In this document: positions 6,306 to 37,863 of the stretch, piece after piece | Layout of the letters: each line of letters opens with the position of its first letter | Position numbering within the stretch: the first letter of the stretch is position 1 | Assembly: GCA_002409965.1 (NCBI GenBank) | Contig: DHON01000105.1 | Location: forward strand, 5,461 to 69,460 | Direction of reading: 5' to 3' | Length of the DNA stretch: 64,000 bases | From: Firmicutes bacterium UBA5389 | Lineage (GTDB): Bacteria; Bacillota; DTU025 | The notes under the pieces: model-generated | What the model was told of the DNA's origin: nothing | The model's input: the letters and a program-made list of their open reading frames with translations, nothing else | Database searches by the model: none | Position numbers and translations under genes: made by a program

Positions 6306-6309
6306 TCTC

Positions 6310-6385
6310 TACTTGCCAAACAGACCCAGCGACTCGCAGGAGTCCTCCATGATGCAGTTGCTCGATGCGACAAGACTGAACGGTC
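6310..6385 (-). pseudogene. Remnant of a DegT/WbpE-type aminotransferase, a ~25-codon mosaic with an internal deletion
   Basis: The minus strand reads PFSLVASSNCIMEDSCESLGLFGK*. This joins two motifs of the 25.5-26.8 kb DegT gene (PFSFIASSNCI ... EDSCESLGS). Nucleotide identity by eye is ~30/33 and ~26/30 over those two blocks. It ends at a TAG immediately 5' of the GTG start of the helicase-C ORF and in the same frame. Confidence 0.5.
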
Positions 6386-6571
6386 GGCTGTGTGAACACC
6401 ACAAAAGGCGGCGCCCACGTGGAACTGCGGCGTTAACGTTCAGCAGTGTTGCCAATGTGGCGCAAATGTCGGAAGCGCTGGGATGAGTGAGGAGCCTATA
6501 GAGGGTTCAGGGGGGGCCTGGACCCTAGGGGAATCGCAGCGGCAGTTTACGCCACTTGACAAGACCTGACC

Positions 6572-7537: not shown

Positions 7538-7544
7538 ACGTCGG

Positions 7545-17424: not shown

Positions 17425-19642
17425 TTGTTATTCCTCCCGGAGCAGCATAGACGCGCCGAATCGGATCCCGGGTAACTACACTACCAGAGTAGGTGCCGTC
17501 CTCGCAGAACCAGCGGAAGCGTCTATTCTCGAGTAGTCCAAAACCGGTCTGCGCCACAATCAAGTCGCCACCGTCAAATGTGTCGATGATCGCATGGAGC
17601 GTTTCGTCTTTCAGAACATAGAGACGAGTATCCGTTAGGATGTAGAGATAGTCGCCCGTATCGACGATGCGACGTGGAACAGATCCGATACCATAGGCTC
17701 GAACAGGTTCTCCGGACTCGGTCACCATGACGACTCGACCCGAGTAGCCTGCGAGGAATGTCGCATCCGACCAACCGGCGAAGCTCGCGGCGTAGATCCA
17801 ATCGGCAGCATGGATTTCGCTCACAACGAGAGAAGCCGTAAGTGTTAGCCTACGTCCGCCTGCTTCTGTCTCACTCCGGCTCATCTCCCGGGCGTAATAC
17901 GCGCCAGCGTACGCTGGCAAAGCGTTCTGATCAATGCCAGTGATCAACTCCACAGCCAAATTGAGTTCCTTCATCCGTTCCGTTGCCTTGGGGTCATGAG
18001 GATTGCGATCCGGATGCCATTCCTTGGCTAGTTGCCGATAGCGGTTCTTCACATCCTCTTGAGTGAAGGGACATGATAGCCCAATGAGCGATAATGCCTG
18101 TTGAACATCGCTACTCGTCCCGAACTTCTCGCTGCGTTCGGGAACCCGGGTCCACCCATCGGTGATCGGAAGTCTTGTACCCCAGCGAGCCCTCCCGTCT
18201 ACTCCCACGCACCACGCCTCATCGACGGCAGTGAAGAGATAGCGACTGCCGTCGCGGGACAGCGCAACGCACCGGATATGGTTTTTCAATTCATCATTGC
18301 GGATGTCGAAGCGCTTTCGGATCGCCCGAATCTCTGGAGCATCCCACAGAGCTGTCTCCAGGGTCAGCTCCAACATGTCATCATAAGCATGAACTACGCA
18401 GTCTCTAGACATAGCGATCAGTCCTCGGCCCATCGGGTTTACATTGATCCGATACACGTCGTGGAGTAGGGGCTTCTTGGCGATCAGCTCGCCCGCACGA
18501 TCATAGCGGATGACAGCTGCGGGAACCTGGCCCATGCCCCCTGCCTTTCCGAGATCGTCTACCATCAGCAAGCCCGAATCCAGAGGGTGAAGCCGCCTGA
18601 ACGCGGTGTCAGGCCTCTCCCCCGTCGGAATCTTGTCGATCGCCTCAATCCGCCATCCATCCGCACCGCGAACCTCGAAGTGGTCGTTAGCCGCAGGGAC
18701 AGCAGCCGCCGCGCCTCGCACCTGCGCCTCCTCCCACCGGAGAGGGGATCTTGGAAGCGGTACGTAAGGCATATCTGCCGCGCTAATCTCGTGAAGCTGT
18801 GGCCGGTTACGGTCGGTGCGATGGGAGCCCACAGTCCGCTTTCGCACAGGCGATGATGCCGGTGCCGCCTCAGCAGGCCAGATTACGTATGTGTTGCCGT
18901 GCTTGTCACGCGTAATCTTGCCTGCCTTCTCGAGCCAGGTGATTAAGTCGGATATGCGGCGCCCGTCTGTCATGCCAACGAACGCCTTCACGTCCGCTTG
19001 ATGGCAACCCGGGTTCTGTCGCACAGCCTCCAAGATGGCTGCGAAGAGCTTGCGGCTCTCCTCGTGAGCTTTGACCGTGTCCGTCCATGCCTCAAGCTCC
19101 CGATTCGACGCAACGATTCGCTGCATCTCAGTGAGACCCTCGTCATCCCCCATTAACGCGAGCATCGTGCCGCCAACCTCAAGCGCAGGGATCGAGGAGA
19201 CGGCAGACGAACCGAGCGATTGCTTCATGCAACGTACGAACCCCGGTACTTGAGGCAGGTTCTCACGTGCCAGCCTAGCGGCGCGTGCATAGTCCCGCCT
19301 TGAAATGGCCAGCTGCATGTCTCCCATGGTGTGGAAGTAAGCATCCGTTCCCCGCGCATCGCCCATGACGCTCAGGTGTGTACAATCGGTGGGCCTGGAG
19401 GCGGCACACGGGCTCAAGGTTGAAGGAGGGTCTGAATCGCGAACTCTATCTGCCAAGTGGGCCGCAGGTTGCCTGGGGGAGAGCCCTAACAGCCGTCCGA
19501 GAAACTTAAGCACGGTGACCACCTCAAATCGAGACTTCTCGAGACCAGGGAGCGCGTTGGTACTTGGCACCCACTCCCAAAGTGCCAGCGCGATGCTCAT
19601 GAGCGAGCCAGCCGAGGTTGCCGCTACGCAGCCCGAGAACAC
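17321..19642 (-). CDS. J-domain (DnaJ-like, HPD motif) protein with a winged-helix-like segment and beta-propeller-like (PQQ/WD-like) repeats; probable start at 19366 or 19327 rather than 19642
   Basis: J-domain: 'EDVKNRYRQLAKEWHPDRNPHDPKATERMKELNLAVELI'. wHTH-like segment: 'ADVKAFVGMTDGRRISDLITWLEKAGKITRDKHGNTYVIW'. C-terminal repeats such as 'GDYLYILTDTRLYVLKD'. In-frame ATGs give MGDARG (19366) and MGDMQLAIS (19327). Confidence 0.6.
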   Translation of the reverse strand: MFSGCVAATSAGSLMSIALALWEWVPSTNALPGLEKSRFEVVTVLKFLGRLLGLSPRQPAAHLADRVRDSDPPSTLSPCAASRPTDCTHLSVMGDARGTDAYFHTMGDMQLAISRRDYARAARLARENLPQVPGFVRCMKQSLGSSAVSSIPALEVGGTMLALMGDDEGLTEMQRIVASNRELEAWTDTVKAHEESRKLFAAILEAVRQNPGCHQADVKAFVGMTDGRRISDLITWLEKAGKITRDKHGNTYVIWPAEAAPASSPVRKRTVGSHRTDRNRPQLHEISAADMPYVPLPRSPLRWEEAQVRGAAAAVPAANDHFEVRGADGWRIEAIDKIPTGERPDTAFRRLHPLDSGLLMVDDLGKAGGMGQVPAAVIRYDRAGELIAKKPLLHDVYRINVNPMGRGLIAMSRDCVVHAYDDMLELTLETALWDAPEIRAIRKRFDIRNDELKNHIRCVALSRDGSRYLFTAVDEAWCVGVDGRARWGTRLPITDGWTRVPERSEKFGTSSDVQQALSLIGLSCPFTQEDVKNRYRQLAKEWHPDRNPHDPKATERMKELNLAVELITGIDQNALPAYAGAYYAREMSRSETEAGGRRLTLTASLVVSEIHAADWIYAASFAGWSDATFLAGYSGRVVMVTESGEPVRAYGIGSVPRRIVDTGDYLYILTDTRLYVLKDETLHAIIDTFDGGDLIVAQTGFGLLENRRFRWFCEDGTYSGSVVTRDPIRRVYAAPGGITIETRVRRAFVSGAPAWWEGSAHQDATSNILSDRG

Positions 19643-20053: not shown

Positions 20054-22480
20054 CTAGCTTGCCGTCGCCGCTCCGAGGCAGGATGCTGCTAGCTTGGCCT
20101 GCGTACCGCTGGCGCTCGCACACCAAGCAGTCAGGTTCGGCTCAGCGTCTGGCAGATGGGACAGTACGTGTGCTTTATTGAGGCGATACATGAAGCACAA
20201 GATGTCCTTTGCTGTGCGTTTCTTCTCGTCCGATGACAAGTGGCCAAAGAAGCTCTTTTCGGGGGCTCCTTGGATACTCTCCATAAAGTGGCTCTCACCA
20301 TGGAGGACTAATCGATACATCAAGTTCCGGTAGTACATTCTTGACTCATCATCTGGTAGCAGAGCCAACACTCGCTCATCCAGGCTGACCTCTACAACCC
20401 CTTTCTTGAACGAAAAGGAGGCAAAAGCCTCTAGCACTCTTCTCATCATGTTTCCGATCACCAGGTCGGAGTCGAGATCAGCCGCAGTGCCCGCAGCATA
20501 CTCGTAAACCTTTTGAAGCAACCGGGTGTACTCGTTGTGTCTCTCATGCTGGAAACCGGACAACGACCTGCCATCAAGCTGAAACGGGCGATATTCCATG
20601 TTGACTGCTGTCTGCTTGCAGCGTTTCTTTACTTCGTCCAGCATCTTCTCCATATCGAACATCACGCTCAGGTCGTGAGTCATGACCAAGACCCTGCTAG
20701 TTGGGCAGCCAACGAGGACTTGTTCGAGTCTCCACCTCAAGAACGAGAGTATCCCGATTCTGTTCTCCAAATCGAAGCTCGAGATAGGATCGTCAATCAC
20801 CAATAACATCTCGTCGGAATATACCGCCTTGACGTCCATGTCCTTCGCTGCCTCTGCAAAGAAATAGCAGAGAGCAATTACGTTCCTTTCGCCGCAAGAC
20901 ACCTTGTTGGGACTGATGGGCTGCCCGTTTGCCCTTAGGTGATAGACTCCGTCAGATCCCAGTTCTAGCGAGAGCCGCCCCCGGCAGAAGAAGACGTAGT
21001 CCAGCGACCTGTTTATCTCCTCAGCAGCAATATGGAGGTTTCTTCGCTGCGAGTCCAGAAACGTCCTCTTGCGCTCCAGTTCCGCGAGGCTTGCTCTCAT
21101 TTGACGCAACTGGTCGTCTGCGATCCGCTTCGCCGTTCGTTGCTTTTGGAGCGAGGCGTACATACTCTCGATTGTCCAGTGGGCAATCTCGTCATTGAGA
21201 ACCAGAAGTTCGTTCTTCACAGCAGCCCTCTCACTGAGAGTGCGGTTGAAACTCACTCGATCGGCCTCCAACGAGGCTAGCGCCCGATTCAACGCATCGT
21301 GAGCCGCTGCCACACCGATAGAGTCGTCATACACCATCTTCCCGAAAGGACTATTGATCTTCGCTGTGACAGCATCGTTGTGAGCAGCGACCGCAGTGTT
21401 GTAGTCACTGAGCCGCTCCAGTACACAGCCACATGATTGTAGGTCACGGTAAACCTGATATGTACCGGTCACCGCTTCAGGAATCAGCAACCGCTCAAGC
21501 TCACCCGTGAACTCGTCAACATCACGGTTCAGAATACGCTCGATACGTCCGAGAGCTTCGACTCGGTACTCATCCCTTATCGGCTGAAGGCATTTATCGC
21601 AGACAGTATGCTTCGGATCAGAAAGAAGCGCTCTCGCGCTGGTTATGACCGTAACCCCAAATAGGTCCAGCAGACTCTGTTCTCTGTCCGTCAATTGCGG
21701 TCTCTCAACTACCTTATCAAGAAGCAGTCTTGCCCTCTCGATGACATCATTGACAGCAGGCACTAGTGCGACTCCTGTGGCAATCGGCGTTGATGCGGCA
21801 CTGACTGCGAGGTACTGCGGAAGCCGGCGACTCAACTCACCATGGAGATCTGCCGGAGACCCCGTCGAGGGCATCTTCCCAATTCTTCCGATCTCAGCAT
21901 CGGTAACCGAGAGATTCTGTCTCTGCCCCTTGATCCTTGAGCCAACGTCAGCCCATCCATTGGCTTCGCGAAGTCTGCTGTGAATCTGCGCGAGCCAGTA
22001 GTCTGGCGAGTTGACGTCACTCTTGTTCGTGAATCGCACGCATGCAGTCTCCTGATTGGACACCTCCGCTACCATGGCCTCGATGAGCTTCTCTGTCTCT
22101 GCGATTTGGTCCTCTATAGCTACCTGCTCGCCAAAGAGCACAATCGCGTCCAGTCCCGAGCCTTTGACCTTTACACGAGACGAGACGTATTCTTCATCGA
22201 ACACAAGGATCTTCTCGGGTTTCGCCGTAGAAGCGGCTCCGAGGCGAAGAGTGCCCATCATGGGCTCCAGTGTGACGGTTCGAGGATTGGCCGCATCCCT
22301 GTACTCGCGGAAACCCTGCGCAATCGTGCTTTTCCCGCTTCCGTTCTTCCCATACACAAGGGCTACACGTTTGCGCTTGTGTGACTTTGAATCCTCCGGA
22401 AACAGCTCTAGTGACGTAGTGCTAGAGAAATAGGCAGAGGATATGGTCACTCCTGTCATGCTCCCAATCGTGGTCACCAC
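20054..22480 (-). CDS. AAA_13 / RloC-PrrC-like ABC ATPase of 808 aa with a coiled-coil insertion carrying a CxxC (zinc-hook-like) motif and a C-terminal ~240-aa domain (candidate anticodon-nuclease-like)
   Basis: Walker A 'VYGKNGSGKSTIAQGF'; the coiled-coil middle carries 'CDKCLQPI'; Walker B 'MLLVIDDPISSFD'. Confidence 0.6.
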   Translation of the reverse strand: MVTTIGSMTGVTISSAYFSSTTSLELFPEDSKSHKRKRVALVYGKNGSGKSTIAQGFREYRDAANPRTVTLEPMMGTLRLGAASTAKPEKILVFDEEYVSSRVKVKGSGLDAIVLFGEQVAIEDQIAETEKLIEAMVAEVSNQETACVRFTNKSDVNSPDYWLAQIHSRLREANGWADVGSRIKGQRQNLSVTDAEIGRIGKMPSTGSPADLHGELSRRLPQYLAVSAASTPIATGVALVPAVNDVIERARLLLDKVVERPQLTDREQSLLDLFGVTVITSARALLSDPKHTVCDKCLQPIRDEYRVEALGRIERILNRDVDEFTGELERLLIPEAVTGTYQVYRDLQSCGCVLERLSDYNTAVAAHNDAVTAKINSPFGKMVYDDSIGVAAAHDALNRALASLEADRVSFNRTLSERAAVKNELLVLNDEIAHWTIESMYASLQKQRTAKRIADDQLRQMRASLAELERKRTFLDSQRRNLHIAAEEINRSLDYVFFCRGRLSLELGSDGVYHLRANGQPISPNKVSCGERNVIALCYFFAEAAKDMDVKAVYSDEMLLVIDDPISSFDLENRIGILSFLRWRLEQVLVGCPTSRVLVMTHDLSVMFDMEKMLDEVKKRCKQTAVNMEYRPFQLDGRSLSGFQHERHNEYTRLLQKVYEYAAGTAADLDSDLVIGNMMRRVLEAFASFSFKKGVVEVSLDERVLALLPDDESRMYYRNLMYRLVLHGESHFMESIQGAPEKSFFGHLSSDEKKRTAKDILCFMYRLNKAHVLSHLPDAEPNLTAWCASASGTQAKLAASCLGAATAS

Positions 22481-25541: not shown

Positions 25542-26782
25542 CTATCCCCGCTCCCCGAGCGCCCCCTCCAACACCCCCGCAACGTACTCGACCTCTTCCT
25601 CTGTAATCCTGTTATGGAACGGTATCGCCACACTCGTCCGCCCCACCGCCTCCATCACCGGGAAGTCGCCCTCCCTGTACCCGAACCGCTCGCGGTAGAA
25701 CGGCTGCAGATGAATGGGCGTGAAGTAAGGCCGGCACCCGATCCCCGCCTCCTGGAACCGCTGCATCACCCGGTCTCTCACCGCCTGCTGCGCCTCGGCC
25801 CCGGCCTCCTCGCACCCAACCCGGATCACATAGACGAACCAGCTCATGAAGTCTACCTCCGGCGCCACCCGCGGCACCCAGACCCCCTCTATCCTCAACA
25901 GCCGCTCGCGCCACATCTGGGCCACCCGCGCCCGCTTCTCGAGGATCTCCCCGATCCGCCCCATCTGCACCACGCCCAGCGCCGCCGACATCTCATCGAT
26001 CCGGTAGTTGTAGCCCAGCCTTTCATGCGCTAGCCACACCCCTGCCTCGCCCCTGCCCTGGTTCCGCATGCTGTTGCATAGCGCGGCGATGCGGTCGTCG
26101 TCGGTGACGATCATCCCGCCCTCGCCCGTGGTTATCTGCTTGTTGGGGTAGAACGCGAACACAGCGGCGTCCGCGAAGTCCGGTCCGCCGGCTTTCTTCC
26201 CATTGTAGACCGACCCCAGCGACTCGCACGAGTCCTCTATGAACACAAGACCATGCTTCCGCGCGATATCGCGTATCTCATCTAGACGTGCCGGCTGCCC
26301 GAACGCATCCACCGCCAGTACCGCCCTCGCCCTCGGCGTGATGGCCTGCTCAATGAGGTCGGCGTCCATGTTCGCCGTGTCGGGCTCGATGTCGACAAAC
26401 ACCGGCTTGGCTTTCTCATACAGGATGCAGTTGCTCGATGCGATGAAACTGAACGGCGTGGTGATTACCTCATCACCGTCAGAGATGCCGTACGCCCGGA
26501 TCAGCAGGTGAAGACCGCTAGTGCCGCTGTTCACCGCCATGCAAACATACATGAGTTGTCTTTCGACGAACGCTTCGGCATGCTGGTTGACCGGGAATGG
26601 GCTTGTCGGCAGGACAGGCGACTGACCCGCCTGCTCTCGGAACCACCGGATTCTTTGGCCCGGAACAGGCGGGCGATTTCATCGGAATACGCAGCCAACT
26701 CAAACGGGGCCGCGTTCAGTGAATTCTCCCACTGAGAATCCGGCACCAAGAACAGCAATGGGAAGTGGAGCGTACTAGCCAT
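25542..26782 (-). pseudogene. DegT/DnrJ/EryC1/StrS-family PLP-dependent sugar aminotransferase, disrupted by a 1-nt frameshift near 26650-26662
   Basis: The 83-aa ORF (26531-26782) gives the N-terminus ('...RLFRAKESGG'). The next frame continues '...WFREQAGQSPVLPTSPFPVNQHAEAFVERQLMYVCMAVNSGTSGLHL...' into the 336-aa ORF (25542-26552), which carries the DegT motifs EDSCESLGS, GEGGM and LHLQPFY. The frame switch is at 'tccggtggttcc'. Confidence 0.7.
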
Positions 26783-26793
26783 CGGAGCCCTCC

Positions 26794-27420
26794 CTAGTAC
26801 GGTGCACGACTCTCTATCTCGCGCGCGAGCTTTACAAGGTCATCCAAAATGGCCTCCAGACGTCCCTGTGTCTTGAGCCAGCTACCCGCACTGGCGATTC
26901 TCTGTCGTTCGGTGGCCTTGAGTGCCGCCTTCTTGGCGACACTGCTCTCGTGGGCTGAGAGATTGCGCAATGTGAATAGTAGCTCCAGGCTACGCTTATG
27001 CTCACGGCTTTTGCAGGCTCGCACTAGGTAATGATCCTCAGGCAGGTACTCCCTGAGTCTGCTGATAAGCCCATCGCGGCCCCTAAAGTCGAAATACCGA
27101 TTCCCCACAATGAGGTACCTACACACCTCGTCTGTGAGGTGTCTAGGCAATTCGATGCCCAGAACCGATCCCAGTACTGACGTATCGTTGTTGATGGCTC
27201 CTACCAATGCGCTGAGAATGAGGCGCTCAAATGACACATTGGCCTTGATCACGGCGCACTCATATATCCATGATGTAAACTCATCCGCAGAGGTAGAGAA
27301 TGATGCGCTATCCACGAACTTACCAATCCGCTCCATCTCCGCGATGAACAACGACGCAGCTAGCCTAACGCTTTTCTTTCTGGCCATACGATCAACCACC
27401 CCACGCAGCCTGCGAGTCAT
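26794..27420 (-). CDS. Hypothetical 208-aa protein with an Rx4H motif (candidate HEPN / Abi_2-like RNase)
   Basis: 'LFTLRNLSAHES' gives R-x4-H in a predicted helix; otherwise no match. Weak. Confidence 0.4.
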   Translation of the reverse strand: MTRRLRGVVDRMARKKSVRLAASLFIAEMERIGKFVDSASFSTSADEFTSWIYECAVIKANVSFERLILSALVGAINNDTSVLGSVLGIELPRHLTDEVCRYLIVGNRYFDFRGRDGLISRLREYLPEDHYLVRACKSREHKRSLELLFTLRNLSAHESSVAKKAALKATERQRIASAGSWLKTQGRLEAILDDLVKLAREIESRAPY

Positions 27421-27837
27421 GGGTCAATCTACGCTAGTTCATCTATTACATATGGAAACGAAGCTTGTCCCATCTACAGGCTGGAGCATTCTGCGTCTGA
27501 GCCTGGCAGCCATAGTACTCGCGTCCAGCTACCAGACTCCCTGTCGGTCTCTGGCGTAGGCGCTACTGCCGTTGCAGTAGTCTCGCATATCACGTCATAG
27601 CGGCTCACGCCGCTGTAGAGCTGGCTAGGGCGAAATGGCCCGGAGATGCGCCAACCGCCGATCACATTATTCCCTCTGTCTTTGCTCGTTCTTCTCGTGG
27701 CTGGGCACGCGTTCCGCTGGCCCCTTCGTGTCATGCGCTAGAGACCATGCAAGACGCAGATAGCTAGCATGGTCACGCTCACCTCCGTTGTTAGCCACCT
27801 GCGCTTCGCGACCCGCCCTGGCCTAGCACGCTGCGCA

Positions 27838-28344: not shown

Positions 28345-28833
28345 CTACTGGCTCAGCGGCCCGATCCTGCTGGCGTCGATCGGCAGGGATGTCAGGTACA
28401 TGATCGGGACGTGCGTGTTTGTCACTAGTCTATGACCGATGTCGGCAGGATCTGGCGCGAATCCGGCAATGCGTCCAAGGCCCCTGGGATCGGCCTTTAT
28501 CCATTCGACTCGCCGGATGTGTCTGTCGAGCTCGTCTTTGGCTTCGCCTTGGAAGCGGCGGCAGATCTCGGCCACCTCGGCTGCGGTCCGCGCGAGCTGC
28601 AGACGCTTGCATTCGGTGAGCCGGATCTCTGCGGTTGGCCGCCATGCCAGGACATCGACATCGCCGAGTTCTGACGGGCCGCACAGTTCGGTCATCTGTA
28701 CTCCGGTGCGCGTATGCCATCCGTCTTTCTCTAGTTGCTCAGCAGCTGATTGGGCAAACGCATGGCCTCGCTCGCTGTTGACTGCCCCGATATACTTTGC
28801 CATCTCCTTGGACACGAAGAACTCCTGCGGCAA
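28345..28833 (-). CDS. PD-(D/E)xK nuclease-like protein (162 aa); possibly the 3' part of a frameshifted gene that includes 28739-29113
   Basis: 'GDVDVLAWRPTAEIRLTECKRLQ' fits D-x-D...E-x-K. The upstream 124-aa ORF (28739-29113) overlaps by ~95 nt in the +1 frame. Confidence 0.4.
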   Translation of the reverse strand: MPQEFFVSKEMAKYIGAVNSERGHAFAQSAAEQLEKDGWHTRTGVQMTELCGPSELGDVDVLAWRPTAEIRLTECKRLQLARTAAEVAEICRRFQGEAKDELDRHIRRVEWIKADPRGLGRIAGFAPDPADIGHRLVTNTHVPIMYLTSLPIDASRIGPLSQ

Positions 28834-29113
28834 CAGATCTGCCTATCAGGTAAGCCACCCTAGCTCTCACCATGCCAGCTCCGAAGAACACTTTGTCGCC
28901 ATCGCGCTCTCCGAAAACTAGAGTGGTGTACTCGCCATTGGTACGCAAGTAGATCCTGGGCTCGATCAAGCCGCCGTTGATTGCATCAGAATCCATCGCA
29001 GCCTCGATGAGTAGCGCCGCGTTGGCCAGTAGTTCATCCAAGTCCCACCGTGAGAGCTGGCGACCACCCACCACTTCTGGTTCGCTTGCCACTAACGACA
29101 TGGGCCATTCCAT
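28739..29113 (-). CDS. Hypothetical 124-aa ORF; possible 5' part of a frameshifted nuclease gene with 28345-28833
   Basis: ORF geometry only. Confidence 0.3.
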   Translation of the reverse strand: MEWPMSLVASEPEVVGGRQLSRWDLDELLANAALLIEAAMDSDAINGGLIEPRIYLRTNGEYTTLVFGERDGDKVFFGAGMVRARVAYLIGRSVAAGVLRVQGDGKVYRGSQQRARPCVCPISC

Positions 29114-29143
29114 CTCCTAACTCAGAGAGCGACCACATGCCGT

Positions 29144-31114
29144 CTACTTTGAAACCGCGTCGATCCACGCCTGAGGAATGAGCGCGTTTCCGTGACGCCA
29201 GCGTTCGACGACAGCCTCTTGGTACCACTTCTCATCCGGATCAGCGTGCTCGGTAATAATCACCTGGAAGCGGCCATCTAGTGATGCAACGGTATCGCGG
29301 ACCAGCTCAAACGTGCGAAGTACGGCCGCGCGGTCTTCATCAACGTCCGCCCCATCACGCCCAACCTCTAGACGGCCTTCGCGATCCCGGTCTGCCGGGA
29401 AGTACACCTGCGAAGGTTGATCGACAAAAAGAAACCGGGGAACCGGTCGGGCCCCCGCTACAAACGTTTGGTGAAGCGCCAGATGCACAGCAATATGGTA
29501 CCCCACCCAGTTCGCACCGCTGCCCATCTTGTCCATGGCCACAGGGCCATCCGGAGTATCGGCAACAACGGTCAGCCTTCTGATATCGAATCGCAGGGGG
29601 TTGCTCGAGTGCTCGAGCTCAAGCCTTGTGCCAATGGCTGTGATCTTGTGCGAGATTACTGAAAGAATCGACTCCACACGCTCCCGCATCATATCATCGC
29701 TTAGCTCCGCCTCAAGCTCAGTGATTTCGTCTCTGAGCCTTTGGCCCCTGTCACTCAGTCTGTCAACTCCAGTAGCCGTCTCGGGGACAGTCTCCAGATA
29801 GAGACTGATTCGTCCCTTGACGTGCCCCACCCTTGCGACTAAGTCACGGTAGTTGGCGACCACCTGCTCGGAACGTTGTAAAGCCTCCATGGACACTCGG
29901 TTCTGCGCGAGTTGCTCTCGCAAGCTCGCAGCTTCGCCCTCAAGTTGTGCAGTAAGTCCCTCTAGGTGTGGGTTATCCTGGGCAAGATGCTTCAGTCGCA
30001 TGTCAAGCGTACGCAATGCCTGACGGAGGGAGTTGTCATCCGGAAGACTCGGTACTTTGGCCAGGCACAGTGGACAAACACAGTCGACTTCTCCAGTATC
30101 GGTAAGCAAGTCTATACTCCGAAGTCGCCCGGCCTGAACAGCACTCTCATCTGCATACCCGCGCCGTTCATCGGCAAGAGAACGTGTAGTTCTTAGGTCC
30201 GCCTCCACCCGGCGTAGGCGGCGGATCAGCTCCTCTCTCTCCTCCAAGACCAGCTCGTAGGCACCTGCAATCTCCTCTAAATCAGGATCAGGGACCGATG
30301 GCATTGGCTTCTCCAGCAACTCCTGGAGCAGGGCAATAGAGTCCCCAAAGGACCTCTCCTCGTTCAACAGGTGCAACATCCCAATGGCACTGGCTTCATG
30401 CAGCAGAGCAGTGGCTCGGCCTGAGCCATCGCCACGCAGGGCCTCGGTTTCTGCGAGGTCTCTCTGCACCCGTTTCAGCTCTTGACGTAACGAGCGAAGA
30501 TGGCCAGCCTTTATCAGGTGATCGCTGTCGACGGCGCCCAGGAAGTAGGGAAGCGCGTCCTTAATCGCTTGCGGGATGAAAGGCTCGCTCTGCTGGAAAA
30601 AGAGAGTCTTCCTACTGATAATCTCGTCCTGCGGCTGAAAGCAGAAGTACAAAGCGTGCTTGATAGTTGCAGCCAGAGGGCTTCGCGTCTGGCCGGGTGG
30701 CACCTCGTGCAGATTGTCTCCGATGCCACACTCACGGGAAAGAAGCTGAATCGCGGCATCGATGTTGGTCGTCGGCTGGAGTACTGCCTTCGGAGGTATA
30801 TCTACCTCGCTGCCGACCTCATAGTACACTGCGCCGCTACTTTGCTTGCCCCTATCCGGGGCTCTTCTCGCAACCAAGATCTGCTTCGCGCTCGACACTA
30901 GCCTCAGCGCGTACCACTCAACGGTTGACCGGATGGCACCATAGGCTACCCCACACTCGCTTGCCCCAAGACAGTAATCAACGATAGATATCAGGGACGA
31001 CTTTCCCGTCTTGGACGAGCCTGTTATGATATTGACTTGACCTTGCCGTAGTGACAGAACTCGAGGTTCATCTGAAGGGCCGTAGAGGATGATGTCGGCA
31101 ATCTGGATACTCAT
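29144..31114 (-). CDS. ABC-3C system ABC ATPase (DUF3732-like) with a coiled-coil arm carrying a CxxC motif
   Basis: N-terminus 'ILYGPSDEPRVLSLRQGQVNIITGSSKTGKSSLISIVDYCLGASE' (Walker A). The coiled-coil carries 'CVCPLCL'. The C-terminus has 'RFLFVDQPSQVYFP' (Walker B-like) and 'QVIITEHAD'. Confidence 0.7.
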   Translation of the reverse strand: MSIQIADIILYGPSDEPRVLSLRQGQVNIITGSSKTGKSSLISIVDYCLGASECGVAYGAIRSTVEWYALRLVSSAKQILVARRAPDRGKQSSGAVYYEVGSEVDIPPKAVLQPTTNIDAAIQLLSRECGIGDNLHEVPPGQTRSPLAATIKHALYFCFQPQDEIISRKTLFFQQSEPFIPQAIKDALPYFLGAVDSDHLIKAGHLRSLRQELKRVQRDLAETEALRGDGSGRATALLHEASAIGMLHLLNEERSFGDSIALLQELLEKPMPSVPDPDLEEIAGAYELVLEEREELIRRLRRVEADLRTTRSLADERRGYADESAVQAGRLRSIDLLTDTGEVDCVCPLCLAKVPSLPDDNSLRQALRTLDMRLKHLAQDNPHLEGLTAQLEGEAASLREQLAQNRVSMEALQRSEQVVANYRDLVARVGHVKGRISLYLETVPETATGVDRLSDRGQRLRDEITELEAELSDDMMRERVESILSVISHKITAIGTRLELEHSSNPLRFDIRRLTVVADTPDGPVAMDKMGSGANWVGYHIAVHLALHQTFVAGARPVPRFLFVDQPSQVYFPADRDREGRLEVGRDGADVDEDRAAVLRTFELVRDTVASLDGRFQVIITEHADPDEKWYQEAVVERWRHGNALIPQAWIDAVSK

Positions 31115-31668
31115 GGCCTTACCCCCCAGAGAGCCATGATCGTCTCAGTGCTGCCTGAAACCGCGTACCATCTCCCTACGAAAAATGACTTCTCAGTGAT
31201 CTCCTGGAACTCGTCGGTATTGGCCTGTATGCTGGCAAGGGCTCCCCTACGCAGATTACCCGCATGCACGTGATCGCCCACAAGCATCAACGCACGCTTC
31301 GATGCAGCAAGTATTAAGCCCTCGCGGACTAGTGGTACGAATGACACTGAAGCATCAGCGAACCTGAGTCTGACACGAGGGTTGTCTTGAAGCCACCCGG
31401 CGAGAGAGGAGTTCTTCTGGCGCGGCAGAAGGCTCCTTGTGTTCCGCATAAGCACGACTGCCGGCACCAAGAACACAAGCGGATAAGGCATCCCCGATTG
31501 GGATTCCTGCTCGTATCCTCGAACAGCGTGATACAGCACCACCCCCATGAATGCTGGGTTGAGGAGCGCTATCTCCTCAGGGCTCCGATCAGTCAAGCGG
31601 ATCGGGTCAGTCACAGTGTACCCTCCTCTATCAGGCACTCTAGCCTTTGCTGGAATTCGGGGTGCCAT
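31111..31668 (-). CDS. ABC-3C middle-component-like protein (185 aa)
   Basis: Its position between the nuclease and the ATPase, with start/stop overlaps on both sides, and its size fit 'ABC-three-component system middle component' proteins. No motif confirmed. Confidence 0.5.
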   Translation of the reverse strand: MAPRIPAKARVPDRGGYTVTDPIRLTDRSPEEIALLNPAFMGVVLYHAVRGYEQESQSGMPYPLVFLVPAVVLMRNTRSLLPRQKNSSLAGWLQDNPRVRLRFADASVSFVPLVREGLILAASKRALMLVGDHVHAGNLRRGALASIQANTDEFQEITEKSFFVGRWYAVSGSTETIMALWGVRP

Positions 31669-32771
31669 CCTATGAGAAGCCTATCAGAGAGTATCTGTAG
31701 GGAGCCGCGTGAGACGAAAGGTTCGCGGCATTCTGGACGGATGAACAAGGAATCCTCCTGTTCTGCCCACTTATACAGGTCTCGAGCAGCCATCCGCATT
31801 TCGAGCTCTGCAGTTCCAGTGCCTACCCTCTGCATCATCTCGTCAAATCGAATCTCCCACTCCTCACGGAGATGCTTGTCAAATACTGCTAGATCTCCAA
31901 CGAGTATAAGTCCTTCTCGCAGCCATCTAGAGCGCTGACTTGAAGCCCCGTAGTACTGCCTCATTGCTGTGATGATCCTCTTGTTGATAAGGTCAATGAG
32001 TCTGAGTTGTTCGACAAAGGGATGAAAGTTGAAGGCGGCCTCATCGATCTCAAGATCCCGAAGATCCTGGTCAATCGGAAGGTTATCCTCCCTAAGTTGC
32101 CTCCGCAGACGCTCAAGCTGAGCGTCAATCTCCTCGCTCTGGATTGGCTCACCTTTCGTTCCTTGCAGGTATACTATGATACGCCCAAACCACCAGCCCT
32201 CGAGTCGTGTGATCAGCGATTCGATTAACTCCCGCTTCACCACGAGCGCGAGTTCCCTGCGCAAATCCCTGTCAACACTCACGATGTCGGAAAAACCGTC
32301 TAGGACCGTAATCTGTTCAACCAGCAACCGGCGGTCTGCCTGCGAAAGAGAACGGTAGGCTGTGTAGGCTGACTCGTTATCTCTGTTACTCGAAGTCCGG
32401 GCCACCTCGTCAAGCCCACGGCGGGCCTGTTCTACATCACGCTGCAAATCCGCACGCAAGCACGATGCAATGGAACCTCTCTCCGCACGCGCAGTCGTGA
32501 TCAAGTAGTATGCCGTGTCGCGCGACCATTTACACGTTGTGAATCCATCCACCCATACCCTTATTGACTTCCACAGGTCAGCACTGGCGTTGCTTAGTCT
32601 ACCCTCACGCCTGATCTTGTGCTTCACCTGTAGCAATTCGGTTGGACTTCCGTCTGTCTCAAAAGCCACATCATCCAGGGTCTCGATAGTTACGCGAAAA
32701 CTCTCCTGTTCTTTGATACGACGGATCGCATCGAGAAGCGCAACACGGCACTGAAACAGGTAGCCAAGCAT
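31611..32771 (-). CDS. ABC-3C effector: DUF4297 (Cap4/LmuA-N-like) PD-(D/E)xK nuclease-domain protein
   Basis: N-terminus 'MLGYLFQCRVALLDAIRR...VTIETLDDVAFETDG...ELLQVKH' matches the GYxYQ...E-x-DD...Q-x-K pattern of DUF4297 nucleases. Confidence 0.6.
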   Translation of the reverse strand: MLGYLFQCRVALLDAIRRIKEQESFRVTIETLDDVAFETDGSPTELLQVKHKIRREGRLSNASADLWKSIRVWVDGFTTCKWSRDTAYYLITTARAERGSIASCLRADLQRDVEQARRGLDEVARTSSNRDNESAYTAYRSLSQADRRLLVEQITVLDGFSDIVSVDRDLRRELALVVKRELIESLITRLEGWWFGRIIVYLQGTKGEPIQSEEIDAQLERLRRQLREDNLPIDQDLRDLEIDEAAFNFHPFVEQLRLIDLINKRIITAMRQYYGASSQRSRWLREGLILVGDLAVFDKHLREEWEIRFDEMMQRVGTGTAELEMRMAARDLYKWAEQEDSLFIRPECREPFVSRGSLQILSDRLLIGWHPEFQQRLECLIEEGTL

Positions 32772-33049: not shown

Positions 33050-33862
33050 TCACTGATCCTCGCCGAGCATAAGGCCAGCATAGTCACGCAACAGCCCGAA
33101 TGCCGATACGATAAGCACTCCCAGCGCATCGTCCATTTCGCGCTCACAGATATCCAATGTGACACGGAGATCGACTCGAAGGTCTGTAGGCCACGCGGCA
33201 CCGACGCGATGGCAGGACTGATCAACTTTGTTATCCTCGGTCCTGCGTTCTATCTCCCTCCAGCCATCTAGGGATACTCTGAACCCCGATGCTGGTGAGT
33301 TGCTCTCAAAGAATCCGTGACTATGACTTTGAGCTCCTTCATGGACGAAATGATTCCGAATGGCATACGAGAGCCCGATCGGCCATCCGAACGTCTGCCG
33401 GATAGATTCACAATGTGTCGTTGCGGTTGTTTTCTTCGTCTTGTCTCGATTCACGAAATGCGAAAGCAGTTGCACGCGAGCCATTGGGTTAAGCGCCGTT
33501 TCCGGCGTGCACAGTACGTGACCGACCATATGCGTGATCTTGTCGGCCAGTGCCCAGGTAATCGCCATGTACGCCTGAAGTCCAATCAGCCGCGCGTGAT
33601 GATACTTCACTGGTGTAGAACCGAGTGGAACACAGTCATCAGGATCAACCGCGCTTTCGAGGCCACTGAGAAACTGGCGAGCCGCCTTGCGTGTCTCGAG
33701 CATGTCGATGCAATCATCGATGTCCTTACTGTAGGATGCCATGGTTCGAAGGGAGTCTTCGACATCAGAAGGGAGAGTTCCGGGGTGCCGCCCAAGGGCT
33801 CTATTCACTTCGTCGAGTGCGCACTTCGCTCGCTCCAGCCTTTTCCTAAGCATGTCGCTCAC
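33050..33862 (-). CDS. Hypothetical 270-aa protein with an Rx4H motif (candidate HEPN-like), translationally coupled to the STAND gene
   Basis: 'YAIRNHFVHEG' (R-x4-H). Its ATG overlaps the STAND stop (33859-33862). Confidence 0.4.
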   Translation of the reverse strand: MSDMLRKRLERAKCALDEVNRALGRHPGTLPSDVEDSLRTMASYSKDIDDCIDMLETRKAARQFLSGLESAVDPDDCVPLGSTPVKYHHARLIGLQAYMAITWALADKITHMVGHVLCTPETALNPMARVQLLSHFVNRDKTKKTTATTHCESIRQTFGWPIGLSYAIRNHFVHEGAQSHSHGFFESNSPASGFRVSLDGWREIERRTEDNKVDQSCHRVGAAWPTDLRVDLRVTLDICEREMDDALGVLIVSAFGLLRDYAGLMLGEDQ

Positions 33863-36800
33863 TCACCCCGCTCCTCTTTGGCCTCTTCCTCTTCTCGCCG
33901 GAGTTCCGCCTTGGCCACCTCCATGTGCCATTCCCAGAAGGCGCGAAACGCAGTGTCAGTCTCCGCGTCCAAGAGTTCCTGTGCACGCTGAACGCCGTCG
34001 ACGAACTCCTGCGGAACGCCGCCTGGTGCCGTCCACCACACTCTTACCCCTTTGGGCATTAGTGCACTGAAGAGTCGGCGCCTCTCCGGCAGGCGTGGCT
34101 CTCTGCCGGCACGTTCGACAAGAGGTTGGGCAATTGTGCGCCAGGGCGGGCTCGCGATGGCGTACCCGCCCGCTATTCGTGCCAGCCGACGCAGGTCATT
34201 TAAGCTTGAGGTTGCTCTCAGGCGATTGGCTACTTCTTGGGGGACCACCAACCCCTCTGAATCAACGCCCAGGAGCAATCGCGGCAGGTAGTAACCGATC
34301 GTACCGGTGTTGGACGCTAGGTCTATGAGGGCAGCTATTGCCTTGGAGATCTCGCGGTTGCCAACGTGAGCCGTGGTAATCGGGGCGACACACCGACTGA
34401 GTAGCACGCCATGGTCGGTCGCGATTGCTCTGCCGCCCTCATCCTGCGCCTCCATGTCCACACGTCTCTGGAGAGCTCCGGGAAGCCACGTAACCGGAAG
34501 ACGGCCAACACGCTTCAGTATCTCGGCGAGCTCCCATTCGGCGGTATTACTGAGGACGCTCAGATCCGGCAGCAAGAGTACTTGGTCGAGTAGCCAGATT
34601 CCGAAGTCCGGAGGAGCTTCCTGCGCCTTGTCTTCATCAAGAGCCCAGTAGGCCGAGCGTACAAGAGAGACAACTGCATCGCCGAGTTGCTCTCTGGGGA
34701 TCTCATTCAGTGTTCGCTCCACAAGGCCCTTAAGCTCAGGCCAATCACGGCTGAGTCCCAAGACAGCGATCTTGATGAAGTCGGGCCCCTGCCCATTGTC
34801 GAGAAACAGCTTTGCCTTGGACCGGAGGTAGCTATGCTGCGCCGGACACAGTCTGCCGTCCTCCCGCGAGACTGGCCTATCGTAGACCTGCTTTATGAGA
34901 CGGATTCGGCGTTCGTCGTCGCTGCACGTATTCACGAGCTTGTCGACTAGTCTGTGCGCGGCCTCGGCTCCCGCAGTTCTGCGCAGCTTCATGATCCAAC
35001 TACATGCGGCTGTGATTGAGAAGTCCGTGTACCTCGATGTCTCTGGCTCTGCTAGCGATTCGGCTATGAAGGATCCGATCGAGTCGCTAGTGTCTGCGTG
35101 TGCGCCTAGATTCCAAGCGAATCTCTGCAGCTGGTCAGGTCTGCGCTCGCCGGCAAAGCGAAAGGCCCGGTCGACAAATGACTTGATGTCCCGGCAAGAG
35201 GGATTGGCCGCGAGTTGAGCCGCTTTCTCATCCCATCGCTCATAACACCGCTGCGGATCGTCAGAGCGGAACAATGGTTCGAACTCTCCGGCCAGATCGT
35301 TCATCTCGTACAGATTCTCCAGTTCTCTGGACACACGTTTGAACTCAGGGTCGTCATCGAAGCGATCGTGCCAGCGCCATAGTTCGCGGGCCGCCTTGAG
35401 CTCCTCAAACTCGCGTGCATTCTGTGAGAGCAGTGAGCGTGCCCAAACAAGGTCGTCTAGCAGTACATCGCGCAGCTCGCTATGCAGACTCTCCCCGTCC
35501 CTCTTGCGGCACTGGTTTGCGTTTCTGTGTGCATTGACAAGAGCAGCCCAGAAAACGAGTCGTACCTCGGACGTCACACGTTGGTCTGCAAGATAGCCCC
35601 TGACCTGATTGAGAATGTCTTGCCGGGCCTTCCATGCCGGACTGCCGGGCAGCATGACGACGCTACCGATGTTGAGCTTATCACCCTCGCTCCACACCTG
35701 TTCCCGCCCAAGTTCCAAGTAGGGCTCCATGAGAGACTTGAGTGCTGCCAACTTCGCCGTGTACGTTGGCTGGCCAACTGCCTCGGCAAGCAGGCGACTA
35801 ACAACGGTGCATAGCTCGGCTTGGAAATCAGACCAGAACTGAGGTCCGCCCCCAATCACTCGCTTCACGAGCTGAGCAGCTCGCTTCCCATCATTCGGCA
35901 ATCCGCCGGCACGTCGGGCGGCGATGTCGGCCTCGGCCTCCACCAGTGCACAAAGCTCCCCAATCACCTGCTCGCGCTCGTCCTTCGTCTGTGCTCCCAT
36001 TGCGGCGTGAAACACGGGCCACGCCAGCGCGAGAACTACATCATCCTGCCCCACCTGATAGCTGCCGAAAACGCCCTGGACTTCATCCGTGCCTGCATCA
36101 ACGCTGCGAAAAGCGCGGCTGAGTTCGACCGTTTCGATTGGGTAGAACTGAGCTACGTCCGGCAGGAGTTCGGCGATGACCAGGCGCACACTTGCGCTAG
36201 TCGTCTCAACGTGGTCCCGGAAGTGATCGAAGAAGGGCTTCAGAAGAGGCACGGGGGTCCTTGACAGCTTTAGTAGAGACTCTGTCCGGGCCATAGACAC
36301 GAAAACCGCTTGTCCAAGCTGACTTATGTTTCCCTGAAGAACGGTGCGCAGAATATCGTCCACAATGGTTCTCGCTGCGTCTGACGGCTGCATCGGCATC
36401 TCTCCGTAACCGACGTCTACCGAGAGCCAATGAATAAGCACGTGATCGCGCAGGACGTCCGGCTTGAGTTCGACGAGTCGATTTCTTGCCCCTCGCTGTG
36501 CTAGGCCTCCTCGCGCGACTAGTCTAGCCAGCATTTCCCTCACCGACGTGTCCGACGCGACACCACTGCCTTCACGAAGTAGCCCGATCGCCGCATCGCT
36601 TTCTCGGTTCACGGCGCCAACAAGAGCGACCCACCGAAGCAACGAGCGCACCTGCTCAGGTTGGAACTCCTTTTGACACTGGATGATCTCCTCCAGGTAG
36701 GACTCTGCAAGGCTGTCGGCAGTTTGCGGAACCCCGGCAAGGTCGCCTGAGGTCTCAAGGACGTGAACGGCGATAGTCAGCCACATTGGATGATATGAGA

Positions 36801-37863
36801 AACGACCGGCAAGTTCGTGGGCAACTTCCTTGCGCCATGTATCTCTCTTAGTGCCCAGCGGGCCTGAGCTCAGCAGGCCCATGCACATTTGCTCCGCTTC
36901 GTCTGGGCGAAGCACATCAAGGTTGATCGTATCAACGTACTTCCTTGTCCTGGCGCTGCCAAACCATCGCATCACAGGATCCTTCGGGGAACGGACAGAA
37001 ATGGCTACCTTCCAATTGGCGGTCCTGCTACTCCGTTGTTCGTCAAGTATCGTCATGAGTTGCTCATCTTTTGGCTCATCAATTAGCAACAGAGTGGGGC
37101 GCTCGGGCACGATTCCGTCAAACCAGGTTCCCGACGACAGCATGGTCTCGACATTGGCCCAGAGGACCTGCCACCTACCCATGCTCGCGATTTCTTCTCC
37201 CGCCTCGATGAGGAGGCGCGTCTTCCCGATGCCCCCGGAGCCGTGGATAACCAAGAACCTCGAGTCGGACGACATGAACCGGGCGACTTGATCTAGCTCT
37301 TCACCTCTGCCAACAAACGGCGTGGGCGTACCGCGCTTCAGCACCGTCTCTTGGGAAGCAATTCGTTCTCTTGCCTCCGGCAGCGTCAGGAAAGCCCTTG
37401 TCTGATTCCCGAAGAAAAACCTATCGACTTCAGGATGCTTGTCCAGAAGAGCGTCTAGCTGGCTTCGCCCCCAGTACTCAGCAATGAGGCCCTGGCTGCG
37501 GAACACGGGTACCACCTCGTCATCCCATCTCTCTTGATCAGTAGGGTTGAACAAGGCGTTTGTGACTAGGCGCCAATGTGTCACGCCCTGCCACTGCGCG
37601 TACCGCTCGTGTCCTGGCTCACGATAGCTGGCGATCTTGGAAGCCTCCCGCTTCGCGTCCGCTATCGCTTTCGCGGCCGAGGGACTCTGATGGTGCTTTG
37701 CCTGGAACACGCAGGTGCCGTCGCTAGAGCGCATGTCTTGGCCGCCATCCCTACCGAGGCGTTCGAACAGCATTGCCTTCGGATCCTCGAAGAAGACAAT
37801 CCTCGCAACCAACGCTTCAAAGGTGGCACCATTGGTTATGGCTCCCCAGTTCCGATCTCTCAT
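33859..37863 (-). CDS. Avs-like antiviral STAND NTPase of 1334 aa: N-terminal Mrr-like restriction-endonuclease domain, NB-ARC/NACHT-like P-loop NTPase, C-terminal helical-repeat sensor region
   Basis: Mrr-like nuclease: 'GRDGGQDMRSSDGTCVFQAKH'. P-loop: 'FLVIHGSGGIGKTRLLIEAG' (Walker A), 'PTLLLIDEPKD' (Walker B). About 900 aa of alpha-helix-rich sequence follow. Confidence 0.7.
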   Translation of the reverse strand: MRDRNWGAITNGATFEALVARIVFFEDPKAMLFERLGRDGGQDMRSSDGTCVFQAKHHQSPSAAKAIADAKREASKIASYREPGHERYAQWQGVTHWRLVTNALFNPTDQERWDDEVVPVFRSQGLIAEYWGRSQLDALLDKHPEVDRFFFGNQTRAFLTLPEARERIASQETVLKRGTPTPFVGRGEELDQVARFMSSDSRFLVIHGSGGIGKTRLLIEAGEEIASMGRWQVLWANVETMLSSGTWFDGIVPERPTLLLIDEPKDEQLMTILDEQRSSRTANWKVAISVRSPKDPVMRWFGSARTRKYVDTINLDVLRPDEAEQMCMGLLSSGPLGTKRDTWRKEVAHELAGRFSYHPMWLTIAVHVLETSGDLAGVPQTADSLAESYLEEIIQCQKEFQPEQVRSLLRWVALVGAVNRESDAAIGLLREGSGVASDTSVREMLARLVARGGLAQRGARNRLVELKPDVLRDHVLIHWLSVDVGYGEMPMQPSDAARTIVDDILRTVLQGNISQLGQAVFVSMARTESLLKLSRTPVPLLKPFFDHFRDHVETTSASVRLVIAELLPDVAQFYPIETVELSRAFRSVDAGTDEVQGVFGSYQVGQDDVVLALAWPVFHAAMGAQTKDEREQVIGELCALVEAEADIAARRAGGLPNDGKRAAQLVKRVIGGGPQFWSDFQAELCTVVSRLLAEAVGQPTYTAKLAALKSLMEPYLELGREQVWSEGDKLNIGSVVMLPGSPAWKARQDILNQVRGYLADQRVTSEVRLVFWAALVNAHRNANQCRKRDGESLHSELRDVLLDDLVWARSLLSQNAREFEELKAARELWRWHDRFDDDPEFKRVSRELENLYEMNDLAGEFEPLFRSDDPQRCYERWDEKAAQLAANPSCRDIKSFVDRAFRFAGERRPDQLQRFAWNLGAHADTSDSIGSFIAESLAEPETSRYTDFSITAACSWIMKLRRTAGAEAAHRLVDKLVNTCSDDERRIRLIKQVYDRPVSREDGRLCPAQHSYLRSKAKLFLDNGQGPDFIKIAVLGLSRDWPELKGLVERTLNEIPREQLGDAVVSLVRSAYWALDEDKAQEAPPDFGIWLLDQVLLLPDLSVLSNTAEWELAEILKRVGRLPVTWLPGALQRRVDMEAQDEGGRAIATDHGVLLSRCVAPITTAHVGNREISKAIAALIDLASNTGTIGYYLPRLLLGVDSEGLVVPQEVANRLRATSSLNDLRRLARIAGGYAIASPPWRTIAQPLVERAGREPRLPERRRLFSALMPKGVRVWWTAPGGVPQEFVDGVQRAQELLDAETDTAFRAFWEWHMEVAKAELRREEEEAKEERGE

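Follow-up and report, generated by a model that had tools for sequence, protein, structure and literature searches.

A predicted type II Lamassu (ABC-3C) locus and an adjacent Upx remnant in a defence island of an uncultured Bacillota lineage

A 64-kb stretch of contig DHON01000105.1 (assembly GCA_002409965.1), referred to here as the window, very probably encodes at 29144-32771 an intact type II ("short", Cap4-nuclease) Lamassu system, also known as ABC-3C (ABC three-component), with an adjacent segment that is a dead remnant of the defence gene Upx. The source is an uncultured Bacillota (Firmicutes) lineage of metagenome-assembled genomes (MAGs) from fermentation-type metagenomes. ABC-3C corresponds to type II Lamassu (10.1101/2025.06.23.660979), and Lamassu is present in ~15% of prokaryotic genomes (PMC12663957). 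An ABC-3C system had already been called here in a first-pass annotation of the window, and this call is borne out by PADLOC and Pfam through family matches to LmuA, LmuC/MC3 and LmuB. The accompanying remark that little experimental work exists on such systems is outdated, as three studies from 2025 describe cryo-electron microscopy structures and the activation mechanism of homologous Lamassu (PMC12663957; 10.1101/2025.03.14.643221; 10.1101/2025.06.23.660979). The assignment of the window Lamassu builds on its gene content, gene order, translational coupling, full-length homology, predicted fold and motif conservation, which are all direct observations.

The five open reading frames (ORFs) listed for 28345-32771 were all recovered in an ORF check at their coordinates and lie on the minus strand. 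The three Lamassu genes follow one another on this strand in the order lmuA, lmuC and lmuB:

31611..32771, minus strand: lmuA, predicted Lamassu effector of 386 amino acids (aa), with an N-terminal Cap4-type PD-(D/E)xK nuclease and a C-terminal CTD7 oligomerisation/sequestration domain
31111..31614, minus strand: lmuC, middle component MC3, 167 aa from GTG 31614
29144..31114, minus strand: lmuB, short SMC/Rad50-like ABC ATPase of 656 aa with a DUF3732/LmuB_C head

The canonical gene order with overlapping junctions noted in the first pass is confirmed by two overlaps of 4 nucleotides (nt): ATGA at the lmuC/lmuB junction and GTGA at the lmuA/lmuC junction, where the lmuA TGA runs onto the lmuC GTG at 31614, if lmuC begins at this GTG. 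Both Methanosarcina mazei and an unrelated metagenome contig have the same CTD7-MC3-LmuB_C triplet, with this gene order and overlapping genes. A scan of a genome collection with LmuB returned a single match, a proteobacterial MAG contig at 57% identity, and a plasmid search found no near-identical DNA. A promoter and terminator scan gave no motifs enriched above shuffled sequence. As judged by their divergence from the related contig L008, all three genes are under purifying selection, with ratios of nonsynonymous to synonymous substitution rates (dN/dS) of 0.21-0.25 for lmuA, lmuC and lmuB. The locus thus displays the features by which type II Lamassu is recognized, namely an LmuB with a DUF3732 head, Walker motifs and a zinc hook, an LmuC encoded between lmuA and lmuB, and an LmuA with CTD7 and a Cap4-type catalytic lysine. 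Furthermore, no residue class that proved essential in the 2025 studies is missing, as LmuA has its catalytic lysine and LmuB has its Walker A lysine, zinc hook and head-engagement motif.

LmuB matches the PADLOC LmuB model (7e-129) and Pfam DUF3732 (3.2e-54), a family that now carries the Pfam name LmuB_C. In the PDB, the protein matches two solved homologues end to end, namely Salmonella enterica LmuB (9hqu, 5.8e-61) and Vibrio cholerae LmuB (9ny5, 9.2e-61). The ATPase motifs pointed out in the first pass (SSKTGKSS as Walker A, CVCPLC as hook and FLFVDQPS as Walker B) are present and align with S. enterica LmuB, as does a signature motif:

30998..31021, minus strand: Walker A GSSKTGKS, residues 32-39 including K38, paired with GASRTGKS (K40) of S. 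enterica LmuB
30065..30076, minus strand: zinc-hook CxxC (CPLC), residues 347-350 at the coiled-coil apex, paired with CPMC of S. enterica LmuB
29510..29524, minus strand: signature (head-engagement) motif GSGAN, residues 531-535, paired with GSGSN of S. enterica LmuB
29417..29434, minus strand: Walker B FLFVDQ, residues 561-566, a D-Q variant, paired with FLILDQ of S. enterica LmuB

The Walker A motif fits Gx4GK[ST] and the Walker B motif fits the short-type hhhhD[Q/S/T/E], which are the consensus patterns of short Lamassu, in which LmuB measures ~600-650 aa (PMC12663957). The zinc hook of short LmuB proteins is variable, with zero to two copies of CxxC (PMC12663957; 10.1101/2025.03.14.643221; 10.1101/2025.06.23.660979), and the window LmuB has one copy (CPLC). 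In S. enterica LmuB the zinc hook is needed for defence, and the head-engagement mutant S536R, whose exchanged residue may lie in the signature motif, loses activity (10.1101/2025.03.14.643221).

LmuA matches the PADLOC LmuA model over its full length (2.2e-57) and is composed of two domains:

32292..32771, minus strand: nuclease domain, ~residues 1-160, with an approximate boundary read off the secondary structure of the AlphaFold2 model
31644..32018, minus strand: C-terminal domain CTD7, residues 252-376 (Pfam PF20283, 4.9e-40, profile positions 1-125 of 126)

The nuclease domain contains G3-Y4-x2-Q7 (GYLFQ), E30, D33-D34 and Q48-V49-K50 (QVK at 32622-32630), and CTD7 aligns with the C-terminal domain of LmuA from both V. 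cholerae and S. enterica. Residues 19-377 match V. cholerae LmuA in the PDB (9nxx, 2.7e-15), and in this alignment K50 pairs with the catalytic K57, a residue whose exchange in the K57A mutant abolishes defence (PMC12663957; 10.1101/2025.06.23.660979). In addition, G3, Y4, Q7, E30, D34, Q48 and K50 are invariant in all 32 LmuA homologues compared (41-88% identity). The PD-(D/E)xK catalytic residues, whose loss would have spoken against a Lamassu effector, are therefore kept. An AlphaFold2 model built from the alignment of these 32 homologues (predicted local distance difference test, pLDDT, 88.5; predicted TM-score, pTM, 0.80) was compared with the PDB using Foldseek. The top 16 matches are all chains of V. 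cholerae or S. enterica LmuA, including 9nxx and 9hr5, followed by HamA, Cap4, the Avs3 nuclease and DUF4297-HerA.

The middle component matches Pfam MC3 (9.2e-32) and PADLOC LmuC (1.4e-10). Two starts can be considered for lmuC, as the longest ORF begins at ATG 31668 and yields 185 aa, the approximate size given in the first pass. The protein most likely has 167 aa instead, since the ribosome-binding site GAGGAGG lies 7 nt 5' of GTG 31614, which overlaps the lmuA stop. An independent gene call likewise gives 167 aa, and the MC3 profile match begins only at residue 27 of the 185-aa form, in agreement with the shorter protein.

A mechanism for this Lamassu can be proposed from the V. cholerae and S. 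enterica systems, for which a 1:2:1 complex, sensing of DNA ends, release of LmuA and its tetramerisation have been described (PMC12663957; 10.1101/2025.03.14.643221; 10.1101/2025.06.23.660979). Two LmuB subunits and one LmuC would hold an LmuA monomer inactive (LmuA1:LmuB2:LmuC1), with its C-terminal domain sequestered. The LmuB heads would sense free double-stranded DNA ends or phage replication intermediates or origins, upon which LmuA would be released and would form a tetramer via its C-terminal domain. This tetramer would pair two Cap4-type nuclease domains into one active site, and the active LmuA would cut DNA indiscriminately and so abort the infection. By analogy, we infer that the stoichiometry, trigger and defence phenotype of the window Lamassu are as in the solved systems.

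The segment 28345-29113 lies directly downstream of the Lamassu genes, 30 nt 3' of lmuB and on the same strand. By its homology it is a dead remnant of Upx, a separate single-protein defence gene, and not a part of Lamassu. Upx is a protein of ~143 kDa composed of a sensor/nuclease domain (1-515), a middle domain (516-714) and a C-terminal domain (715-1272), whose PD-(D/E)xK core uses D1161, E1176 and K1178 (PMC13099982). It senses the phage terminase, and E1176A abolishes defence (PMC13601566). The features of the remnant are as follows:

28345..29113, minus strand: Upx pseudogene remnant, ORFs 28739-29113 (124 aa) and 28345-28833 (162 aa), equivalent to S. enterica Upx ~residues 860-917 and 1076-1261 (NCBIfam, PADLOC, PDB, tblastn and comparison with the relative L004)
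29114..29143, minus strand: junction of the lmuB stop and the 5'-truncated Upx remnant (blastn of the relatives L004-L007 against the window and comparison of the regions downstream of lmuB)
28921..28925, minus strand: junction of an in-frame internal deletion of ~450 bp (150 codons), at ~28922-28924
28834..28835, minus strand: 11-bp deletion (GAAGACGGACA in L008) causing a frameshift (pairwise alignment with L008, 99% identical on either side)
28606..28665, minus strand: kept Upx catalytic motif GDVDVLAW...TECK, aligned with D1161, E1176 and K1178 of S. enterica Upx (9wuf)

The 162-aa ORF of the remnant matches NCBIfam Upx_antiphage (1.4e-24, positions 1074-1223 of 1240) and PADLOC Upx (4.5e-22), and the remnant matches S. 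enterica Upx in the PDB (9wuf, 2e-16). It scores 85-94 bits against the NCBIfam Upx model, as opposed to an equivalog cutoff of 1900. Only Upx model positions ~834-890 and ~1048-1223 are represented, so that ~256 of the ~1,230-1,270 Upx residues are left. In tblastn with the Upx-like protein P0001, residues 10-57 are encoded at 29068-28925 and residues 209-237 at 28921-28835, both in frame -1, and residues 242-401 at 28833-28354 in frame -2. The Upx-like homology thus passes from frame -1 (29101-28835) into frame -2 (28833-28351). Three lesions can be distinguished. The first ~830 codons, that is everything before ~Upx position 834, are gone; homology to relatives bearing SIR2 and Upx stops at 29129. 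The internal deletion follows from P0001 residues 58-208, which have no counterpart, and from 451 bp of L004 (11259-11709) that are missing in the window. The third lesion is the 11-bp frameshift. Alignment with Upx-like fragments furthermore reveals that the remnant lacks near-invariant motifs of the Upx family, such as PWR..RR.S, and TTG is the only start available to its second ORF. The first pass had considered that the two downstream ORFs may be one frameshifted PD-(D/E)xK gene, and the tblastn frames, a single 259-aa ORF in L008 and the D...ExK alignment agree with this.

A comparison with related loci gives some clues to how this arrangement may have arisen. L004-L007 have a STAND gene, a 270-aa gene and lmuACB in common with the window, with 97.7% identity overall and ~100% across lmuACB. 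In these relatives a SIR2 gene directly follows lmuB on its 3' side, and in L004 it is followed by a full-length Upx of 1,228 aa (PADLOC 2e-171), so that the short Upx form would be a deletion product. Two stretches of L004 have no counterpart in the window: 3,845 bp with SIR2 and the 5' part of Upx, and the 451 bp mentioned above. The missing 5' part was not displaced to another site in the window, for instance by insertion of Lamassu into Upx, since tblastx of the 64-kb window with a complete Upx-like locus found no Upx sequence outside 28351-29101. In L004, a perfect 24-bp direct repeat TGTGGTCGCCAACTCTCTCGGTGG (GRQLSRW in Upx) at 7258-7281 and 11115-11138 flanks the 3.85-kb segment that comprises SIR2 and the 5' portion of Upx. 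A degenerate version of this repeat pair is found in the window at ~29116-29135 and ~29048-29072, ~60 nt apart. This suggests that the full and truncated Upx states are related by recombination near the 24-bp repeat.

Across window 35427-26654, the contig L008 is collinear and 95.9% identical overall, rising to 99% over the remnant; at 27626-27656 the two differ by a 31-bp indel. For lmuC and lmuB of L008 the identity to the window is ~98%, as opposed to ~90% (DNA) and 88% (protein) for lmuA. The right flank of the window (29100-26700) is 99-100% identical to L008, unlike L004, and the remnant is only 80-88% identical to the L004 Upx. With its lmuACB ~100% L004-like but its remnant and right flank L008-like, the window is a recombinant mosaic. 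These identities indicate recent recombination between strains inside the island.

In L010 and L011, which have no Lamassu, SIR2 and Upx come after the STAND gene and a 430-aa gene of unrelated sequence, and the L010 Upx is full-length. The 270-aa gene and lmuACB therefore occupy a swappable slot. The 270-aa gene is not a truncated version of the L010 430-aa gene, as the two have no similarity. The strain complex thus includes four slot states: STAND, 430-aa gene, SIR2 and Upx; STAND, 270-aa gene, Lamassu, SIR2 and Upx; Lamassu with truncated Upx; and Lamassu with truncated and frameshifted Upx. In the SIR2/Upx loci (L004 7251-12298 and L010 7001-11883), the SIR2 gene (PADLOC SIR2/Aga_SIR2, ~1e-22) overlaps the 1,228-aa Upx gene. 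A conserved SIR2-Upx two-gene system was rejected, because no Upx gene adjoins the more distant SIR2 homologues (66%, 35% and 33% identity); the pairing looks lineage-specific.

Two further Upx-like loci were seen. In the type I restriction-modification operon of L002, an unrelated long-read contig of low coverage, hsdS and hsdR are separated by a Upx-like gene (3934-7609) that was called as four fragments, and this fragmentation is probably due to assembly frameshifts. In L003, a Upx-like fragment of 279 aa adjoins insertion sequence transposases. Many short "Upx-like" database proteins may be similar artefacts or remnants.

Some observations weigh against the reading of an intact Lamassu beside a dead Upx gene. 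For LmuA, the match to Pfam Cap4_nuclease (DUF4297) is sub-threshold, at 22.2 bits with a cutoff of 26.2. The DUF4297-like nuclease proposed in the first pass therefore stands as far as GYLFQ, DD, QVK and the correspondence of K50 to K57 are concerned, but not by the Pfam model itself, and support for a nuclease comes instead from the PDB sequence match, the conservation among homologues and the fold search. LmuA is just ~17-21% identical to the solved LmuA proteins, and its Foldseek TM-scores are only ~0.5 with a large root-mean-square deviation; these low scores probably reflect a differing relative orientation of the two LmuA domains. LmuC has no detectable sequence match among solved PDB chains, and the 1:2:1 sequestration architecture is thus an extrapolation for this system. 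The absence of a match fits with the report that LmuC is variable (PMC12663957; 10.1101/2025.03.14.643221; 10.1101/2025.06.23.660979). On the side of the remnant, its dN/dS against intact Upx is 0.24-0.32, only ~2x the 0.14 obtained when two intact Upx genes are compared over this region, and such drift alone is no proof of long-standing inactivity. This mild relaxation fits a third Upx allele that became truncated fairly recently. Finally, the remnant in L008 is still a single open frame of 259 aa.

The latter point bears on the frameshift. In L008, 11 extra bases (GAAGACGGACA) at window 28834/28835 fuse the two ORFs into the 259-aa ORF, and as a 99%-identical contig carries these bases exactly at the site, the frameshift is very probably real and recent. 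That it is instead an assembly or sequencing artefact, the genome itself carrying the intact 259-aa ORF, is quite unlikely. The source contig is metagenome-assembled and the near-identical L008 has the 11 bases, yet the loss of 11 bp in non-repetitive sequence would be an atypical short-read error. The Logan assembly of run SRR1562007 moreover shows no difference from the window along 14.6 kb (100% identity), frameshift site included, but the two assemblies may share reads. In either case, the gene stays a truncated Upx remnant.

It is very unlikely that the downstream nuclease gene works as a fourth component or extra effector of Lamassu, either as a stand-alone mini-nuclease or through programmed frameshifting. 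Its closeness to lmuB on the same strand, the kept D...ExK triad, the open 259-aa frame in L008 and the just moderately raised dN/dS would all suit such a role, as would the partial single-stranded DNA nuclease activity retained by the isolated C-terminal domain (715-1272) of S. enterica Upx (PMC13099982). However, the Lamassu triplets of the unrelated metagenome contig and M. mazei have no such neighbour, and a close relative has SIR2 and a full-length 1,228-aa Upx at the same position. The remnant lacks both the sensor domain required for terminase recognition and PWR..RR.S, its frame change stems from an 11-bp deletion with no slippery site, and its second ORF starts only at TTG. Of the two options left by the first pass, an extra effector or a decayed one, only decay holds, with ~830 N-terminal and ~150 internal codons lost; an additional Lamassu effector was ruled out, since the ORFs are Upx-derived and Lamassu triplets elsewhere do without them.

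Just as improbable is a role of the Upx stump as a domesticated stand-alone nuclease co-expressed with Lamassu, or of the 24-bp repeat as a switch between island states. If such a switch did exist, the island would toggle between Lamassu with SIR2 and Upx and Lamassu only, and the window genome would have lost the stump via the 11-bp deletion.

That the ATPase is a housekeeping repair protein of the SbcC/RecN/SMC type, and the three genes no defence system, has a negligible likelihood and was rejected: weak NCBIfam matches of LmuB (archaeal SMC-related protein, 1.7e-8; SMC, 0.0026) and the proposed origin of Lamassu from SbcCD (PMC12663957; 10.1101/2025.06.23.660979) point that way, but these matches are confined to the coiled coil (residues 275-492) at 33.5 and 15.5 bits with cutoffs of 300 and 729, whereas the head belongs to DUF3732/LmuB_C, the whole protein matches PADLOC LmuB, its 656 aa and D-Q Walker B suit short Lamassu, and lmuB is translationally coupled to the MC3 and CTD7 nuclease genes and located in a defence island. 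A lack of DUF3732 similarity together with membership in an SbcC/RecN clade, raised in the first pass as grounds for abandoning the ABC-3C call, is accordingly contradicted by the DUF3732 match, and no credible SbcC/RecN/SMC membership was found.

The defence island is dense and takes up 1-38 kb of the window (ZacC-like helicase, Cas4 and SF1-helicase protein, PDC-M09A, DnaJ-domain protein, AAA_13/PDC-S06 ATPase and STAND NTPase). The neighbouring genes are:

3981-6305, minus strand: ZacC-like protein (Zorya type II component; PADLOC 5e-192, model positions 347-1016 of 1019 only)
6572-7537: 321-aa ORF 5' of the ZacC-like gene, with a weak match to a type I methyltransferase N-terminus (7e-11)
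7545-11369, minus strand: 1,274-aa protein with a Cas4-like nuclease and an SF1 helicase, DpdJ/MkoA-like
11844-12482, minus strand: cold-shock-domain protein (PADLOC CSD_V)
16276-17424, minus strand: PDC-M09A homologue
17321-19642, minus strand: 773-aa DnaJ-domain protein
20054-22480, minus strand: 808-aa AAA_13/PDC-S06 (PrrC-like) ATPase
25542-26552, minus strand: DegT/DnrJ/EryC1 aminotransferase ORF, with a match beginning at profile position 42 of 360
33050-33862, minus strand: 270-aa protein with no family match, 3' of the STAND gene with a 4-nt overlap
33859-37863, minus strand: 1,334-aa STAND-type NTPase (AAA_16 3.2e-7 and nSTAND5 2.8e-5, both sub-threshold)

The ZacC-like gene may be N-terminally truncated or split, and the DegT/DnrJ/EryC1 ORF could be a truncated gene or have a mis-set start. 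From ~38055 on, the minus strand encodes formyltransferase, Bac_transf and PIG-L genes. These and the aminotransferase ORF are sugar-modification genes on either side of the cassette of Lamassu, STAND and Upx remnant, which appears to sit inside a polysaccharide-biosynthesis cluster. The pair of STAND and 270-aa genes travels with lmuACB in L004-L008 and is possibly an uncharacterised Avs-like system. The STAND NTPase has an N-terminal D...QAK motif and a weak, non-significant resemblance to Mrr_cat (E=0.11). It has no Avs match in PADLOC, Pfam or the PDB and no PDB match at all, so that its identity with the Upx-associated split-TPR Avs1 mentioned in the literature (PMC13601566) finds no support. 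Rx4-5H motifs resembling those of HEPN RNases occur in the 208-aa protein at 26794-27420 on the minus strand (RNLSAH), in the 270-aa protein (RNHFVH) and in the 430-aa protein of L010 (5666-6958, RNGWLAH); a HEPN reading of these three proteins has no support from hidden Markov models (HMMs) or family matches and is a motif-level hint only.

Taken together, the window adds a divergent Cap4-type, zinc-hook Lamassu from a Bacillota MAG to a mechanistically understood family. This family is known from three independent structural and mechanistic studies, its dedicated HMMs match the locus strongly, and the window Lamassu makes no open question testable. The island is a clean natural example of defence-island turnover and may be of use for studying the gain and loss of cassettes. 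It also calls for caution, as nuclease ORFs that adjoin a defence system need not belong to it.

Among the known systems, S. enterica LmuACB (type II Lamassu; PDB 9hqu, 9hqx, 9hr5; 10.1101/2025.03.14.643221) likewise consists of three genes in the order A-C-B. Its LmuB is matched over the full length (5.8e-61) with aligned Walker A, CxxC, signature and D-Q Walker B motifs, and its LmuA, one of the top structural matches to the window LmuA, likewise joins a PD-(D/E)xK nuclease to a C-terminal domain of the CTD7 type. However, the two LmuA proteins are ~17-19% identical, LmuC is without detectable similarity, and the host is an enterobacterium instead of an uncultured Bacillota MAG. V. cholerae DdmABC, or Lamassu Vc-Cap4 (PDB 9nxx, 9ny1, 9ny5, 9nyg, 9uxh-l; PMC12663957; 10.1101/2025.06.23.660979), is likewise short with a Cap4 nuclease effector, but its LmuB has no zinc hook whereas the window LmuB has one CPLC, and the sequences are highly divergent. 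The remnant is homologous to the C-terminal domain of the dual-nuclease, terminase-sensing Upx of S. enterica (9wuf; PMC13099982; PMC13601566) and keeps its D...ExK, but it has lost the N-terminal sensor, the middle domain and a portion of the C-terminal domain, and its frame is interrupted. The window locus itself is identical to the architecture predicted for ABC-3C, with a CTD7-tailed effector, an MC3 middle component and a DUF3732 ABC ATPase (Pfam CTD7, MC3 and DUF3732). This class was reportedly defined by Krishnan and co-workers in 2020 by comparative genomics.

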